64,000 nucleotides of DNA, taken from Burkholderiales bacterium. Its GTDB lineage: Bacteria; Pseudomonadota; Gammaproteobacteria; Burkholderiales; Burkholderiaceae_E. Each line of letters starts with the position of its first letter. Position 1 is the stretch's first letter. The position numbers and the translations under genes were made by a program. The DNA lies in assembly GCA_044507525.1 (NCBI GenBank), contig JBIQJM010000001.1:18463-82462 (forward strand), in the 5' to 3' direction. Of this stretch, positions 1,235 through 7,452 are shown piece after piece. The notes under the pieces are model-generated. The model was not told the DNA's origin. It made no database searches and saw only the letters and a list, made by a program, of their open reading frames with translations.

Positions 1235-1248
1235 TTGATTCTTCTCAA
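1235..1248 (+). promoter_or_regulatory. FNR/DNR-family box
   Basis: TTGAT-TCTT-CTCAA (9/10 to TTGAT-N4-ATCAA), centred at 1241.5; -10 TACGAT at 1271-1276 gives canonical -41.5 spacing. Confidence 0.7.
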
Positions 1249-1250
1249 TC

Positions 1251-1270
1251 AAAAACGATTATCATTTATC
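1251..1270. promoter_or_regulatory. Fur box
   Basis: AAAAACGATTATCATTTATC, about 13/19 to the Fur consensus; AT-rich island upstream of a TonB receptor. Confidence 0.7.
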
Positions 1271-1310
1271 TACGATCGTCGGGACAACGACAACAGCGGA
1301 TTCCCGACGC

Positions 1311-3392
1311 ATGCGCTTCCATCGATACCCGCCGGCCACGCTGGCACTGCTTGCAGCATCCCTGATTTCGACCGCGGATGCACAGACCCGCCTCGACACC
1401 GTCGTCGTCACCGCCACCGGACGCGCCGCCGAGAGCGCCGAGACGCCGCAGGCGGTCGAGGTGCTCGACCCGCTCGCCGACGAACCCTCGGCGCCGCCCG
1501 GTTCGCTCTTTCGCGGCCGTCCGGGCATGGCCGTGCAGTCCGACGGCGCGTGGGGGCAGAACCCCGTGCTGCGCGGGCTTCGCAAGGAGAGCATCGTCGT
1601 GCTCGTCGACGGCGTGCGGGTCAACTCCGCGCAGCCGCAGGGCGCGCTCGCGTCCTTCGCCGACCTCGGGCTGCTCGATCGCATCGAAGTCGTGCAAGGC
1701 CCTTCTTCGGTCCTGTACGGCAGCGGAGCGATGGGTGGGGTGGTGAACCTGATCACGCCGCAGACCCGCTTCACCTCCGAGCCTACGTTCGGCGGCCGCT
1801 TCGGGCTCGGCCTCGACACGACGAAATCCGGCGCCCTGCTCGTCGAACGCTCCGGCCCCGATCACGCGTTCGTGCTCGGCGCCGCGGTCAACGACACCGA
1901 CGACTACGACAGCCCCGACGGTCGCGAGCCGAACACCGGCTACCGTTCCGATTCGCTGCTCGCGAAATACGCCGTGCGCCTGTCGCCGGCCGCCAGCCTG
2001 CGCCTGAACCTGCAGCGGCACGCGGCGCGCGACGTCTGGTATCCGGGCTCGGCACGCACCGGCGGGCGTCCCGGCGGGGCCGGCATTCCGCCGCCGCTCG
2101 GCACGGTGACGATCCGCTCGCCCGAGCAGCGGCGCGAGCTCGCCGAGCTCGGGCTCGATGCCGACCTCGGCCCGGGACGGCTCTCGGCCGAAGTGTGGCG
2201 ACAGGACGTCTTCCGCCAGATCCGCGCGTTCTCGGCGAACCTGCGCCGCGACTACGTCCGCAACGACGTCACCTTCTCCACCGACGGGATCCGCGCCCGC
2301 TACGTGCTGCCGGTCGGCGACGCGCACATGCTCACGGCGGGCGTCGAGAGCTGGCGCATGCGCGCCGATCCCGAGCGCTACATGGACAACAACGCGCCGG
2401 CCTTCGACAACAACCAGCGCAACGATCCCTTCGACCGCGGCAGCCTGCGCTCGAGCGGCCTGTTCGTGCAGGACGAGATCGAATGGGGCCGCGCGCGCAT
2501 CGTCGCCGGCGCCCGCTACGACCACATCGAAGGCGACGCGCGCGCCAAGGGCATGGGACCGACGAGGCAGACGACCGGCCTGTCGCACAGCGACGACACG
2601 CTGTCCTGGTCGCTCGGCGTCCTGTATCCGCTCGCCGACGGCGTCAATGCCTATGCGAACGTCGGACGCGCCTGGCGTGCCGCCGACATGCGCGAACGCT
2701 TCGAGGATTCCGCGCGCGGCGACGGCTTCTACCACGTCGGCAATCCGCAGCTCGACCCCGAGCGCTCGACCAGCATCGAAGTCGGGCTGAAGGGCAGCGC
2801 GAAGGGCTTCGGCAGCGGCAACATCGACTATCGCGTCTCGGCCTACCGCACGCGCATCGACGACTACATCGCCGGGCGCATCACCGGAGCGATCCACCCG
2901 GGCAGCGGGCTGCCGATCAAGCTCACCGAGAACCTCGACGAGGCGGTGATCCGCGGCATCGAAGGGGTGGCCGCGATTCCGCTCGGCCGCTTCGTCGTCG
3001 ACCTCGCCTTCACCTGGCTGCGCGGCGACAACCGGCAGGACGACGAGCCGCTCGCCTTCATGCCGCCGCCCGAGGTGAGCGTCGGCATCGGGCAGGCCGC
3101 GCAAAGCGGACCCTACTGGCGCACGGCGCTGAGGGCGGTCGCACGGCAGGACCGCATCAGCACGCGCTTCTCGGCCGGCACCGAGAACGAGACGCCCGGC
3201 TTCGTGACCGCCGATGCGCTCTTCGGCTGGGGCTTCGGCAAGGTCGGCGCCCTGTCCGACCTGCGCGCGGAACTGCGGCTGGTCAATCTCTTCGATCGCC
3301 GCTACCACGAGCATCTCACCGAAGGAATCTCGGGCGAGGAACTGCCGGCGTCGGGACGCTCGGCGTCGCTGAGCCTGGCCGGACGTTTCTGA
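1311..3392 (+). CDS. TonB-dependent outer membrane receptor (OprC/NosA-like C-terminus)
   Basis: Signal peptide, TonB box DTVVVTA, plug motif RIEVVQGPSSVLYGSGAMGGVVN, GNPQLDPERS, NLFDRRYHEHL, terminal Phe. Confidence 0.92.
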   Translation: MRFHRYPPATLALLAASLISTADAQTRLDTVVVTATGRAAESAETPQAVEVLDPLADEPSAPPGSLFRGRPGMAVQSDGAWGQNPVLRGLRKESIVVLVDGVRVNSAQPQGALASFADLGLLDRIEVVQGPSSVLYGSGAMGGVVNLITPQTRFTSEPTFGGRFGLGLDTTKSGALLVERSGPDHAFVLGAAVNDTDDYDSPDGREPNTGYRSDSLLAKYAVRLSPAASLRLNLQRHAARDVWYPGSARTGGRPGGAGIPPPLGTVTIRSPEQRRELAELGLDADLGPGRLSAEVWRQDVFRQIRAFSANLRRDYVRNDVTFSTDGIRARYVLPVGDAHMLTAGVESWRMRADPERYMDNNAPAFDNNQRNDPFDRGSLRSSGLFVQDEIEWGRARIVAGARYDHIEGDARAKGMGPTRQTTGLSHSDDTLSWSLGVLYPLADGVNAYANVGRAWRAADMRERFEDSARGDGFYHVGNPQLDPERSTSIEVGLKGSAKGFGSGNIDYRVSAYRTRIDDYIAGRITGAIHPGSGLPIKLTENLDEAVIRGIEGVAAIPLGRFVVDLAFTWLRGDNRQDDEPLAFMPPPEVSVGIGQAAQSGPYWRTALRAVARQDRISTRFSAGTENETPGFVTADALFGWGFGKVGALSDLRAELRLVNLFDRRYHEHLTEGISGEELPASGRSASLSLAGRF

Positions 3393-3409
3393 CTCTGGAG
3401 GAAACCGCG

Positions 3410-4459
3410 ATGAAAGCTGCGCGCCGTCGCTTGCTCGTCTCCTGCGCCGCAGGGCTGGGGGCCGTGGCCGTCGGCAGGGCCGCGCTCGGCGCGGATGCCG
3501 CAGCGGACCCGCGCGGGCGCCTCGCCACGCTCACCCTCGCGGGGCCGCCCGCCAGCGTGTCGAACCCGCTGGTGCACATGGCCGAATCCGGCGCGCTCGC
3601 CGATCTCGCCGGCGAAGTGCGCTTCACCGGCTGGCGCGACCCGGACCAGCTGCGGCTGATGGCGCTCGACGGCAAGGCCGACGTGCTCGCGATGCCGGTG
3701 AACGTCGCGGCGAACCTGTACAACCGGGGCGCGAAGCTGCGGCTGGTCAACGTCTCCACCTGGGGGATCCTGTGGATCGTCTCGCGCGATCCGGAGGTCC
3801 ACGTGCTGAAGGACCTCGTCGGCAAGGAGATCGCGATGCCCTTCCGCGGCGACATGCCCGACATCGTCTTCGGGCTGCTCGCCGAGCGGGAAGGCATCGA
3901 TCCGCGCAAGGACCTGCGGCTGCGCTACGTGGCCTCGCCGATCGACGCGATGCAGCTGCTGCTCACGCGCCGGGTCGACCACGCGCTGCTCGCCGAGCCG
4001 GCGGTGTCGATGGCGCTGCGCAAGTCGGGCTCGTTTCCGACGAGCGTCGTCGCCCCCGATCTCTATCGCGCCGTCGACCTGCAGGAGGAATGGGCGCGCG
4101 CCTTCGGCGGCAATGCGCGCATCCCGCAGGCCGGCATCGCGGTGCTCGGCGCGCTGCGCGATCGTCCCGACGCGGTCTCCCGGATCGCCGCCGCCTACGC
4201 GCGATCGCTCGACTGGTGCGAAGCCAACGCGACCGCCTGCGCACAGACCGTCTCCAGGCACATCCCGATGCTGGACGCCGAAGCCGTCGCCGATGCGATC
4301 GGACACGGGCAGATGGACGCGGTCCCCGCACACCGCGCACGCCCCGCGCTCGAGTCGCTGTTCCGGATGCTGCTCGAGAAGAGCCCCGGGCTCGTCGGCG
4401 GGAAGCTTCCGCCCGACGACTTCTACGCGTCGCCCGCGGCGACGGGCGCCGGCGGGTGA
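3410..4459 (+). CDS. ABC substrate-binding protein (NitT/TauT/NMT1-like), Tat signal
   Basis: RBS GGAGG; MKAARRRLL twin-arginine signal; DLVGKEIA, ALLAEP, IPQAG motifs. Confidence 0.85.
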   Translation: MKAARRRLLVSCAAGLGAVAVGRAALGADAAADPRGRLATLTLAGPPASVSNPLVHMAESGALADLAGEVRFTGWRDPDQLRLMALDGKADVLAMPVNVAANLYNRGAKLRLVNVSTWGILWIVSRDPEVHVLKDLVGKEIAMPFRGDMPDIVFGLLAEREGIDPRKDLRLRYVASPIDAMQLLLTRRVDHALLAEPAVSMALRKSGSFPTSVVAPDLYRAVDLQEEWARAFGGNARIPQAGIAVLGALRDRPDAVSRIAAAYARSLDWCEANATACAQTVSRHIPMLDAEAVADAIGHGQMDAVPAHRARPALESLFRMLLEKSPGLVGGKLPPDDFYASPAATGAGG

Positions 4460-4472
4460 CAGGGATCCCCCG

Positions 4473-5282
4473 ATGAAGTCGCTGCGATCGGCGCTCGCGA
4501 AGCTGCCCGCGTACCTGTGGAGCGGATGGGGTGCCGTGGCGAGCCTGCTGCTGCTCGTCGCCGCCTGGGAGACGATCGCGCAGCTATACGGCCCGCTCGT
4601 ACTGCCCGATCCGCGCACCGCGTTCGCGACGCTCGCACACTCGCTCGCCGCCGGCGACGCGTGGCCGGAGCTCGCGGCAACCGCGCGTCGTGCGCTCGCC
4701 GGCTTCGCCGCGTCGGTCGTCCTCGGCAGCGCGCTCGGACTGCTCGCCGGCGTGTCGATGACGGCCTCGACGATGTCGCGTCCGATCGTCACCGTGCTGC
4801 TCGGCACGCCGCCGATCGCCTGGCTCGTGCTGGCGATGCTCTGGTTCGGCGCGAGCGACGGCACGCCGATCTTCACCGTGTTCGTCGCCGCGTTCCCGGT
4901 CGTCTTCGTCGGTGCGCTGCAGGGCGCGCGCACGCTCGACAACGAACTGAAGACGATGGCGCGCGCCTTCGAGCTGCCGCCGCGCATGATGTTCGTCGAC
5001 GTCTATCTCCCGCACGTCGTCTCCTACCTGTTCCCCGCGTGGATCAGCGCGCTGGGGATCTCGTGGAAGGTGGTCGTGATGGCCGAGCTGCTGTCGAGTC
5101 CCGACGGCGTCGGCGCGGCGCTCGCAGTGGCGCGCTCGCAGCTCGACACCGCGGCGACGATGGGCTGGATCGTCGCCGTCGTCGGCCTGCTGCTCGCCGT
5201 CGAATACCTGCTGCTCGAGCCGATCAAGCGCGAGGTCGAGCGCTGGCGCGGGCCCGCCGCAAGCGGCGGAGCGATGCCGTGA
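4473..5282 (+). CDS. ABC permease (NitT/TauT family)
   Basis: Hydrophobic; PPIAWLVLAMLWFG, SWKVVVMAELL. Confidence 0.88.
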   Translation: MKSLRSALAKLPAYLWSGWGAVASLLLLVAAWETIAQLYGPLVLPDPRTAFATLAHSLAAGDAWPELAATARRALAGFAASVVLGSALGLLAGVSMTASTMSRPIVTVLLGTPPIAWLVLAMLWFGASDGTPIFTVFVAAFPVVFVGALQGARTLDNELKTMARAFELPPRMMFVDVYLPHVVSYLFPAWISALGISWKVVVMAELLSSPDGVGAALAVARSQLDTAATMGWIVAVVGLLLAVEYLLLEPIKREVERWRGPAASGGAMP

Positions 5283-6151
5283 ACGCGCCGTCGGCACCGG
5301 CGCTGCGCGTGCGAGGGATACAGCACGCGTTCGCGCGCGAGACTGTCCTCGACGGCATCGACTTCGATCTGCGTGCCGGCGAGATCGTCGCGCTCGTCGG
5401 GCCTTCGGGCTGCGGCAAGACGACGCTGCTGCACCTGTGCGCGAAGCTGCTGCACCCGGACAGCGGCACGATCGACGACGGCTTCGTCGCGCGCGCCTGC
5501 ATGTTCCAGCAACCGCGACTGCTGCCGTGGAAGTCGGCGCTCGACAACGTCGCGATCGTGCTCGCCGCGCGCGGCGTAGACCGCGGCGAACGCGAGCACC
5601 GGGCGCGCGAGATCGGGCTGCGGCTGGGGCTCGCGCATGCCGACTTCGCCAAGTTCCCGCACCAGCTCTCCGGCGGCATGCAGAGCCGCATCGCGCTCGC
5701 GCGCGCACTCGTCATCGAGCCCGACCTGCTGCTGCTCGACGAGCCCTTCTCGGCGCTCGACATCGGACTTCGCGAGGAGATGTACCGGCTGCTGCTCGAC
5801 CATCTCGCCGTGCGCCCGATCGGGGTGCTGATGATCACGCACGACCTGGGCGAGGCGGTACGACTGTCCGACCGCATCCTGGTGATGGCCGCGGATCCCG
5901 GACGCATCGTCGCGCGCGTCGAGCTCGATTTCCCGGCCGCCCGACGCGACGACGAATGGATCCACGCGGGCACCGCGCGGCTGCTCGCGCGACCCGAAGT
6001 GCGCGAGAGCTTCGGGCTTCCACCCGCGGCCGCGCGGCCGGAGAACGACGAAGGCACGCCGCGAGCCGCAGCCGCAGCCGCAGCCGGCGACGTGCAGATC
6101 GCGCAGCGCGCGCCGGTGCTTGCCTTCGAGCGCAGGGCACCGCGATGCTGA
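5279..6151 (+). CDS. ABC ATP-binding protein (NitT/TauT family)
   Basis: GTGA overlap with permease stop; GPSGCGKTT, FQQPRLLPW, LSGGMQSR, LLLDEPFSALD. Confidence 0.88.
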   Translation: MNAPSAPALRVRGIQHAFARETVLDGIDFDLRAGEIVALVGPSGCGKTTLLHLCAKLLHPDSGTIDDGFVARACMFQQPRLLPWKSALDNVAIVLAARGVDRGEREHRAREIGLRLGLAHADFAKFPHQLSGGMQSRIALARALVIEPDLLLLDEPFSALDIGLREEMYRLLLDHLAVRPIGVLMITHDLGEAVRLSDRILVMAADPGRIVARVELDFPAARRDDEWIHAGTARLLARPEVRESFGLPPAAARPENDEGTPRAAAAAAAGDVQIAQRAPVLAFERRAPRC

Positions 6152-7452
6152 CGCTCGCGCGCATCGAGCGCATGCCGCTCTTCTCGTGCCCTTTCCGCGC
6201 GATGTTCGTCGCGACGGCGCTGTGGTCCGTCGTCGGCATCGCGCTCTCCGGCGCGGCCTTCTCGCTCGGCCTCGAGCTGCCGGCGGTGCCGGGCGGCGCG
6301 CTGCTCTGGCACGCGCACGAGCTGATGTTCGGGGTCGGACTGGCCGCCATCGCGGGCTTCGTCCTCACTGCGGTGCCGGAGTTCACCGACACCCCGCCCT
6401 TCCGTGCGCGCGTTTCGTTCGCCATCGTGCTCGCCTGGGTCGCTGCGCGCATCGCGTTCTGGCTGTCGCCGGTGCTCGGGGCGTGGCCCGCGGCGACCGC
6501 CGAAGCGGGTTTCGCCGCGGCCCTGCCGCTGATGCTCGGCGCGCGACTGCTGCGCGATCCGCAGCGCCGCCATCGCGGCTTCTTCTGGGGCCTGCTCGCC
6601 TTCGCGCTCGTCACCGCCGGCTTCTGGCTCGACGTACTGCGCGGCGGCTGGCCGATGCGCTGGGTGCACGCGGCGCTCGACGCGATGATGATCCTCGTCG
6701 TCGTCGCGATGAGCCGCATCTCGATGCGCATCGTCAACGACGCGCTCGATGCACGCCGCGCGCGCGCGGTCGAAACCGACGCCGAAGCCGACACCGATCT
6801 GCCCGAGTACCGCGCGCGTCCGCCGCGACGCAATCTCGCGATCGTCACGATCGCGCTGCACGCGCTCGCCGCGTTCTTCGCGCCCGGGTCGGCCGTCACC
6901 GGATGGATCGCGCTCGCCGCCGCGGCCGCCGTGCTGAACCTGCTGAACGACTGGCACGTCGGGCGCGCGCTGCTCGGACGCTGGGCGTCGATGCTGTACG
7001 CGGTCTACTGGACGATGGCGCTCGGCTACGCGTGGATCGGCGTCGCGCTGCTCGGGGCGCCGATCGCTCCGAGCGGCGGCACGCATCTGCTCACGATCGG
7101 GGCGATGGGCCTTTCGATCTACGCGGTGCTGAACATCGCCGGGCGCATGCACGCCGGCCGGCCGCTCGACGCTCGCCGGTGGACGCCGACGGGTGCGGTG
7201 TTGCTCGTCGCGGCCGCGCTGATGCGGGCAGGCGCCGGCGTCGCCGGCCTGCCGGCCGACCTGCTGGTCGCGCTCTCGTCGCTCGCATGGCTCGCGGCGT
7301 GGACGCTCGTGCTCGTGCATCTCGGTCCGGCCTGGTGGGGACGGCGCAACGACGGCGGCACCGGATGCCAGGAATGGGTCGACCCGGCGCTGCAAGGCGC
7401 GCCTGCCCCGCGCTGCGATCCGCTCGCGCCTACGCCAGGCGGCCCGGCCTAG
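6145..7452 (+). CDS. nnrS: NnrS family membrane protein
   Basis: LFSCPFRAMF, WHAHELMFG..AAIAGFVLTAVP, HLLTIGAMG, RMHAGRPL motifs. Confidence 0.85.
   Translation: MLTLARIERMPLFSCPFRAMFVATALWSVVGIALSGAAFSLGLELPAVPGGALLWHAHELMFGVGLAAIAGFVLTAVPEFTDTPPFRARVSFAIVLAWVAARIAFWLSPVLGAWPAATAEAGFAAALPLMLGARLLRDPQRRHRGFFWGLLAFALVTAGFWLDVLRGGWPMRWVHAALDAMMILVVVAMSRISMRIVNDALDARRARAVETDAEADTDLPEYRARPPRRNLAIVTIALHALAAFFAPGSAVTGWIALAAAAAVLNLLNDWHVGRALLGRWASMLYAVYWTMALGYAWIGVALLGAPIAPSGGTHLLTIGAMGLSIYAVLNIAGRMHAGRPLDARRWTPTGAVLLVAAALMRAGAGVAGLPADLLVALSSLAWLAAWTLVLVHLGPAWWGRRNDGGTGCQEWVDPALQGAPAPRCDPLAPTPGGPA

Follow-up and report, generated by a model that had tools for sequence, protein, structure and literature searches.

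The operon described here lies in a stretch of 64,000 nucleotides from a Burkholderiales bacterium (contig JBIQJM010000001.1; the whole stretch is called the window), and encodes a receptor of the outer membrane that depends on TonB, an ATP-binding cassette (ABC) importer and NnrS. Several described systems resemble parts of it. In the PqqT/PqqU pair, a TonB receptor and a periplasmic binder recapture a scarce, leaking molecule, pyrroloquinoline quinone (PQQ), according to the available part of PMC12124388. PqqT (PDB 9B1U/9B1V) has the same fold as that predicted for the binding protein of the operon, but the operon protein lacks Tyr161, the operon adds a full ABC importer, NnrS and predicted FNR/DNR and Fur sites, and most of the carriers tested have no PQQ alcohol dehydrogenases. 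TauABC, SsuABC, NrtABC and ThiXYZ share the class of the permease and ATPase as well as the binding-protein fold, whereas the operon proteins fall below all of their family cut-offs, have no conserved anion-binding Lys, are linked to NnrS and TonB receptors and stand behind predicted sites for control by iron and nitric oxide (NO). The heme receptors ShuA, ChuA and PhuR, which serve HmuTUV, are relatives of the operon receptor, which has variants (WRAA...NPQL) of the FRAP/NPNL loop and predicted Fur-type control; the operon receptor, however, lacks both heme histidines, the importer is not of the FecCD type, and a predicted FNR/DNR site is added. The stand-alone NnrS proteins of Rhodobacter and Vibrio cholerae have the PF05940 domain, the invariant His residues and an NO-responsive context in common with the operon NnrS, but the latter falls in a separate clade tied to the importer; the part of the NO-regulon survey PMC1274295 that is available contains no ABC or TonB link to nnrS. 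The closest structure to the binding-protein model is BDI_1369 of Parabacteroides distasonis (3HN0), which shares its AANLYN.G and GG.LP motifs, although the title of 3HN0 names no ligand and the BDI_1369 locus has neither nnrS nor a receptor. In its architecture the operon is of a known kind; what appears to be undescribed is the subfamily of its binding protein, the NnrS dedicated to it and the logic of its control. No description of the operon was found in the open literature; subscription papers on the regulons of Agrobacterium, Paracoccus and Stutzerimonas, and unopened supplements, may list its genes.

The five genes (1311-7452) are co-oriented on the + strand, with gaps of 17 and 13 bases followed by overlaps of 4 and 7 bases in the 5' to 3' direction. 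An earlier sequence-only reading of the window described them as closely spaced or overlapping genes behind FNR-type and Fur boxes, and this description is borne out over 1235-7452:

1235-1248, no strand: predicted FNR/DNR-type activator site, TTGATTCTTCTCAA, with one mismatch to the assumed consensus
1251-1269, no strand: predicted Fur-like operator just downstream of the box above, 13 of 19 positions matching
1311-3392, + strand: TonB-dependent outer-membrane receptor of operon clade A, 693 residues, PF07715 and PF00593
3410-4459, + strand: periplasmic binding protein with a NitT/TauT-type fold in a structure model, uncharacterised subfamily, 349 residues
4473-5282, + strand: ABC permease of the SsuC/TauC/NrtB type, PF00528
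5279-6151, + strand: ABC ATPase of the TauB/SsuB type with a GTG start; TauB and SsuB are the best models, both below cut-off
6145-7452, + strand: NnrS of the importer-linked subfamily, PF05940 (256 bits), with a predicted 12-helix fold like that of heme-copper oxidases

The reading tentatively favoured here takes the cargo to be a small iron complex, the likeliest candidate being a dinitrosyl-iron complex, which arises from an attack of NO on iron. NnrS would strip NO from it and so give the iron back to the cell.

At least 74 loci came from a scan of GTDB genomes. Among the matches listed, the binding protein is joined by permease, ATPase and NnrS in all 47 loci with full context (at least 5.5 kb of upstream and at least 4.5 kb of downstream DNA), and NnrS lies near the binding protein in 59 of the 74; the binding protein stands without the full core in some short loci and in two copies on plasmids (L060, L070, L096 and L098). 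Judged from these neighbourhoods, the fixed unit consists of the ABC importer with its binding protein plus NnrS, and the receptor is an exchangeable or absent add-on. The nnrS linkage on which the sequence-only reading depended is thus conserved, whereas the receptor drops out as a fixed part. Of the 65 listed loci whose upstream DNA is long enough, 34 have the clade-A receptor next to the core. Its place is taken by two other clades, one in Campylobacterota and Thiotrichales and the other in Alphaproteobacteria, and the three are mutually unrelated (cross-clade scores below 110 bits, within-clade scores 240-1260). In the Azonexus family, 20/21 carriers have a clade-A receptor, compared with 4/23 nirS-positive non-carriers; within the genus of the host, 10/26 carriers, including the closed genome G020, keep the binding protein without it. 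The Agrobacterium locus has no receptor at all. The recruitment of three unrelated clades suggests a cargo scarce enough to reward active uptake across the outer membrane, and the persistence of the core without a receptor would fit a small cargo. In Sulfurimonas (L131:5681-6628), the gene before that of the binding protein encodes a MetA-pathway outer-membrane channel instead of a TonB receptor.

Carriers of the unit are found among Beta-, Gamma- and Alphaproteobacteria and among Campylobacterota. It was found in 26/35 congeners, in 21 of the 151 genomes sampled from the Azonexus family and in 11 of the 400 genomes of a phylum sample, in which five candidates were scored per genome. Paraclostridium has a homolog about 25% identical to the binding protein of the window, located between a Crp/Fnr gene and hemerythrin/hcp and without NnrS. 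In Vescimonas (L133:5484-8071), a distant homolog with permease and ATPase comes after a gene for a [FeFe]-hydrogenase regulator of the TM1266 family, a hint of iron-ligand cargos in the binding-protein family at large. The sequence-only reading regarded a TonB receptor paired with an importer other than FecCD as unusual; it is less so than stated, since PqqU/PqqT is such a pair for PQQ (PMC12124388, available part). A plasmid of Rhodobacter capsulatus (L128:4706-10107) carries AraC, a TonB receptor, a methyltransferase and, with no nnrS, a NitT/TauT importer that is more distantly related, and on its gene content is another pairing of this kind. SftP with AtsRBC is a further one.

The two control sites are informative as a pair. 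Scored against FNR and Fur consensus motifs that we take to be standard, the 3.66 Mb host genome (87% complete) contains 45 FNR/DNR-type sites with at most one mismatch and 67 Fur-like sites with at most six mismatches on one strand, so that either box taken singly is weak. When the promoters of 35 clade-A receptor genes were compared with 536 other upstream regions of the same loci, an FNR box with at most one mismatch was present in 22/35 promoters and 18/536 controls, and an FNR box followed within 30 bases by a Fur-like box in 18/35 and 0/536. The adjacent pair is therefore not due to chance, and the sites for the dual control proposed by the sequence-only reading prove to be conserved. 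The pair predicts activation at low oxygen or NO and repression by iron. The site sequence fits either FNR or DNR as the activator, and a similar site lies upstream of nirS in the host genome. Several marine gammaproteobacterial and campylobacterial copies have the Fur box only. NsrR boxes were not found at up to five mismatches upstream of the 78 loci scanned. A divergent Redoxin (AhpC/TSA) gene (755-1252, - strand) shares the FNR/Fur region and is kept in 5/74 listed loci.

The importer belongs to the NitT/TauT-type class, with a PF00528 permease, a TauB/SsuB-like ATPase and a binding protein of predicted TauA/SsuA fold in one operon; the Pfam matches, PF00528 and PF02621/NMT1-like only, include neither a FecCD permease nor a Peripla_BP_2 binding protein. 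Since the permease and ATPase come closest to TauC/SsuC/NrtB and TauB/SsuB, and public databases label homologs of the binding protein as nitrate or taurine binders, the operon might be an ordinary importer of nitrate, nitrite, sulfonate, taurine or hydroxymethylpyrimidine (HMP), with nnrS adjacent by accident. This is very improbable. Every family cut-off is missed by a wide margin (bits/cut-off: SsuA 31/163, SsuC 83/347, TauC 69/342, NtrB 78/209 and TauB 178/357), and SsuB for the ATPase (156 bits) and SaoP for the permease likewise stay below theirs. In the fold ranking, made with Foldseek alone on a structure model with a predicted local distance difference test (pLDDT) score of 96.7, the closest structures are 3HN0 (TM score 0.78, E 2e-18) and PqqT (TM score 0.76, 24% identity, E 2e-17), while Thi5, ThiY, TauA and SsuA rank lower (E about 1e-12 to 1e-13), with only 12-16% identity for TauA, SsuA and ThiY. 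Neither a Lys nor an anion site is conserved in the binding protein. A TonB receptor is not needed for such solutes, and still three receptor clades have been recruited; no desulfonation or thiamine genes recur nearby. On sequence and alignment, the binding protein is not an ortholog of TauA, SsuA, NrtA or ThiY; family scores, alignment and Foldseek ranking all set it apart from the taurine, sulfonate, nitrate and HMP binders, in support of the sequence-only reading. The literature search likewise found no characterised substrate, as had been stated.

PqqT is the nearest fold with a known ligand, and this raises a second alternative, the recapture of an iron-free organic cofactor or thiol adduct (a PQQ-like quinone, flavin, pterin or S-nitrosothiol) needed under nitrosative stress. 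PqqT and PqqU recapture leaking cofactor (PMC12124388, in the part available), and the PqqU model gives the clade-C receptors a weak score (112 bits against 1200). Conservation across 113 diverse binding proteins falls on Gly, Pro, aromatic and acidic residues and one Arg, with no His, Cys or Lys, and the conserved residues of the pocket, as judged from alignments only, are aromatic and acidic. Even so, Tyr161 of PqqT aligns to a small residue before a conserved EP, PQQ alcohol dehydrogenases were found in only 1/5 carriers tested, and the conserved Fur boxes and iron neighbours would be left unexplained, which makes an iron-free cargo rather unlikely. The sequence-only reading also called the binding protein Tat-exported. 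The twin-arginine signal, ARRRLL, can be read by eye, but many homologs have ordinary or lipoprotein signal peptides, and Tat export is thus not a family trait.

NnrS is recognised clearly by PF05940 (256 bits against a cut-off of 28). H56, E59, H314 and H336 are invariant, and the trio of His residues is invariant in 87 sequences. In a quick tree, 52 operon copies separate from four paralogs of the host genome with SH-aLRT support of 100, and a second NnrS copy of Azospirillum also falls outside the operon-linked group; the long branches of the gonococcal copy and of two paralogs are unsure, and the stand-alone controls are four proteins from one genome. On this tree, the operon NnrS forms its own importer-linked clade. 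Its model has 12 helices (pLDDT 94.8) and matches cbb3 CcoN and NorB with TM scores of 0.56-0.69 (E 3e-5 to 2e-4), as would fit an enzyme that carries out NO chemistry at a metal centre. The kinship of NnrS with heme-copper oxidases is already in print. Comparison of NnrS and NorB profiles gave a probability of only 15%, and searches returned no sequence match in the PDB and no usable match in the ESM Atlas. Protection of the iron pool from dinitrosyl-iron formation is reported for NnrS in the accessible part of PMC11526790, citing Stern 2013. In N. meningitidis, mutants in an nnrS gene colonise poorly, according to the portion of PMC4138514 at hand.

The receptor points in part to heme. Among the curated models TonB-hemin (TIGR01785) is best, at 238 bits, relatives reach 263 and 271, and the nearest solved relatives of the receptor are the heme receptors ShuA, ChuA and PhuR (E about 1e-23). 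Some copies adjoin hmu/hut genes, HemS or CobN-like chelatases, and the host and four congeners, in which nirS is present and NirJ and NirD/L-type genes were not found, would need heme d1 from outside. The cargo might accordingly be an iron tetrapyrrole, such as heme, nitrosyl-heme, heme d1 or siroheme, taken up as an iron source or as a cofactor for NnrS and nitrite reductase. However, the TIGR01785 cut-off of 317 is missed by the operon receptor and passed by the true heme receptors that adjoin the operon at L044-L046. Alignment to 3FHH places no His at the positions of His86 in the plug or His420 in the FRAP/NPNL loop of ShuA, if the numbering is as we take it to be. The receptor has the variants WRAA and NPQL of the two motifs, with R456, A457 and P479 conserved in the clade. 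The permease is not of the FecCD/HmuU type, conserved heme ligand motifs are missing from the binding protein, and the core persists without this receptor. The presence of nirS is not associated with the operon in the Azonexus family sample (16/21 carriers vs 34/59, p=0.19), and nirS occurs in only 1/11 carriers of the phylum sample. A tetrapyrrole cargo is therefore unlikely, even though it comes nearest among the alternatives. CobN-like chelatase genes and TonB receptors adjoin the operon in five loci (L037, L044-L046 and L096), which we take to be probably heme-iron extraction systems of the HmuS type.

A further point against a tetrapyrrole is a separate receptor in the nirS regions themselves (host contig C170, 7578-13574, and loci L135-L141). 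NirJ and NirD/L-type genes were found in 0/5 genomes (the host, 87% complete, and four congeners, 97-99% complete), all of which have nirS; NirF and NirN gave no strong match in these five genomes, except for one of 1e-54 in G020. A different TonB receptor is divergent from nirS-cytochrome c-propeller-dnr in 7/8 congener regions fetched, and it is present too in congeners without the operon. This receptor is a candidate for heme d1 scavenging in auxotrophic denitrifiers; no description of a nirS-linked receptor of this kind was found in the open literature. Heme d1 as the cargo of the operon is weakened by both the nirS co-occurrence tests and this separate receptor. The cargos listed in the sequence-only reading fare unequally, heme and heme d1 losing ground and an iron-nitrosyl complex becoming the favoured candidate.

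The conserved residues of the receptor clade itself, H237, H339, M350, M460, H666 and H668 (35 aligned members), leave room for copper. An importer of a copper or other non-iron metal chelate supplying NirK, NosZ or NnrS would agree with these His and Met residues, with nirK in 9/11 phylum carriers, with blue-copper genes beside three loci and with the description of NnrS as heme/copper-binding in the accessible part of PMC9409073. It is nevertheless improbable, because the receptor reaches only 108 bits on the OprC/NosA model (TIGR01778, cut-off 472), iron is what the Fur boxes and the neighbouring iron genes indicate, and no His or Cys is conserved in the binding protein. The receptor has no Cys at all, its plug reading AQPQG at the CxxxM position presumed for OprC.

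The genomic context ties the unit to NO and iron. The host genome, for which close protein matches bear the labels Zeimonas or Burkholderiaceae, has nirS, a cNorBC-like pair, nosZ and five NnrS paralogs. In the phylum sample, 9/11 carriers have nirK or nirS, compared with 95/389 non-carriers (p=1.4e-4), a figure inflated by kinship; with one genome per genus the enrichment remains at p=1.4e-3. Within the genus, nirS is present in 18/21 carriers and 7/9 others. The correlation with denitrification genes anticipated by the sequence-only reading thus holds for the NO-forming nitrite reductases together, but not for nirS or for NorB. The unit sits between nor and nap in Agrobacterium and beside an Rrf2 regulator and DUF1971 in Paracoccus, and divergent Crp/Fnr genes lie beside some loci. 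Iron genes (ferritin, FeoAB, TonB/Exb, HemS, CobN-like, imelysin and DUF2325) adjoin 26/74 listed loci, a count that has no background rate and in which some clusters are labelled by eye.

Salvage of NO-bound iron is the simplest account of these features, since it brings together a promoter predicted to be iron-repressed and activated by low oxygen or NO, neighbouring iron genes, carriers that produce NO, a cargo that would be both small and scarce, and an NnrS that is obligatory. An iron-bearing cargo tied to NO or anoxia is fairly probable; a dinitrosyl-iron complex in particular is possible and clearly less likely. An activator of the FNR/DNR family would switch the operon on at low oxygen or NO, and Fur would repress it until iron is short. 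The receptor would concentrate the cargo where it is scarce, porins sufficing elsewhere. The binding protein, having no conserved His, Cys or Lys, would capture the intact complex and not a bare ion. NnrS, with its predicted heme-copper-oxidase-like fold, would then remove or convert NO as the processing step.

Several observations weigh against NO-bound iron as the cargo. FNR and Fur jointly control feo in E. coli, and such control would also fit plain anoxic iron uptake. In Hydrogenovibrio the Fur box stands without an FNR box, and the copies lie next to genes for heme uptake. The alignment of 113 binding proteins contains no recognisable metal site, and import of an NO carrier could harm the cell. 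A single query for cNorB matched in only 34/60 carriers, a count without background in which qNor was probably missed, and NO enzymes were not found in some carriers (G092, G229) with the queries used. The N. gonorrhoeae copy (L124:3813-11037), which lies after dnaK, was matched to NGO1430-1434 by position and gene lengths and is the one copy for which expression data were found, is decayed, with a frameshifted receptor, a split nnrS, an inserted cadmium-transporter gene and a Fur-like box. In FA1090 its receptor responds neither to iron nor to Fur (log2 change 0.12-0.20, adjusted p at least 0.99), compared with a change of 2.2 for tbpB in the Fe-against-norepinephrine sheet of the same study (both from the portion of the PMC12918729 supplement at hand), and Fur control of this decayed copy is therefore disfavoured. 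The binding protein and permease of the same locus rise only 1.4- to 3-fold under anaerobic conditions in the available part of the PMC3032703 supplement. The label 'NGO1430' in the accessible text of PMC13611482 looks like a misprint for NGO1438.

If salvage of NO-bound iron is correct, a product of NO damage becomes an iron source through NnrS. A dedicated uptake pathway for dinitrosyl-iron, harvesting the iron that NO from the cell, its community or its host tears from Fe-S clusters or the free pool, is at present a doubtful proposal; it would extend over Pseudomonadota and Campylobacterota, and clostridia would have a form that lacks NnrS. Such a cargo would be a new bacterial iron source, would couple the supply of iron to denitrification and to the N2O given off by wastewater and sediments, and would bear on how host-associated bacteria cope with NO. 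NnrS has been without a defined reaction for two decades; in a subfamily tied firmly to an importer, its substrate becomes testable through the ligand caught on the soluble binding protein. Even on a modest reading, many genes labelled as nitrate, taurine or sulfonate transporters would be mislabelled.

Both the receptor and NnrS also occur away from the operon. The four further NnrS paralogs of the host genome are on contigs C136, C143, C189 and C110, and the C110 copy precedes two genes that by eye resemble U32 peptidases; in L099 and L153 the operon, too, is flanked by U32/SCP2 genes. Of six solitary clade-A receptors fetched, four stand among P19/FTR1, TonB/Exb, PepSY or ferric-reductase genes and two follow a suf operon. 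In the latter, from two congeners (L147:4915-6954 and L148:4119-6158), the receptor ends the suf Fe-S assembly operon, and the binding-protein gene is on another contig.

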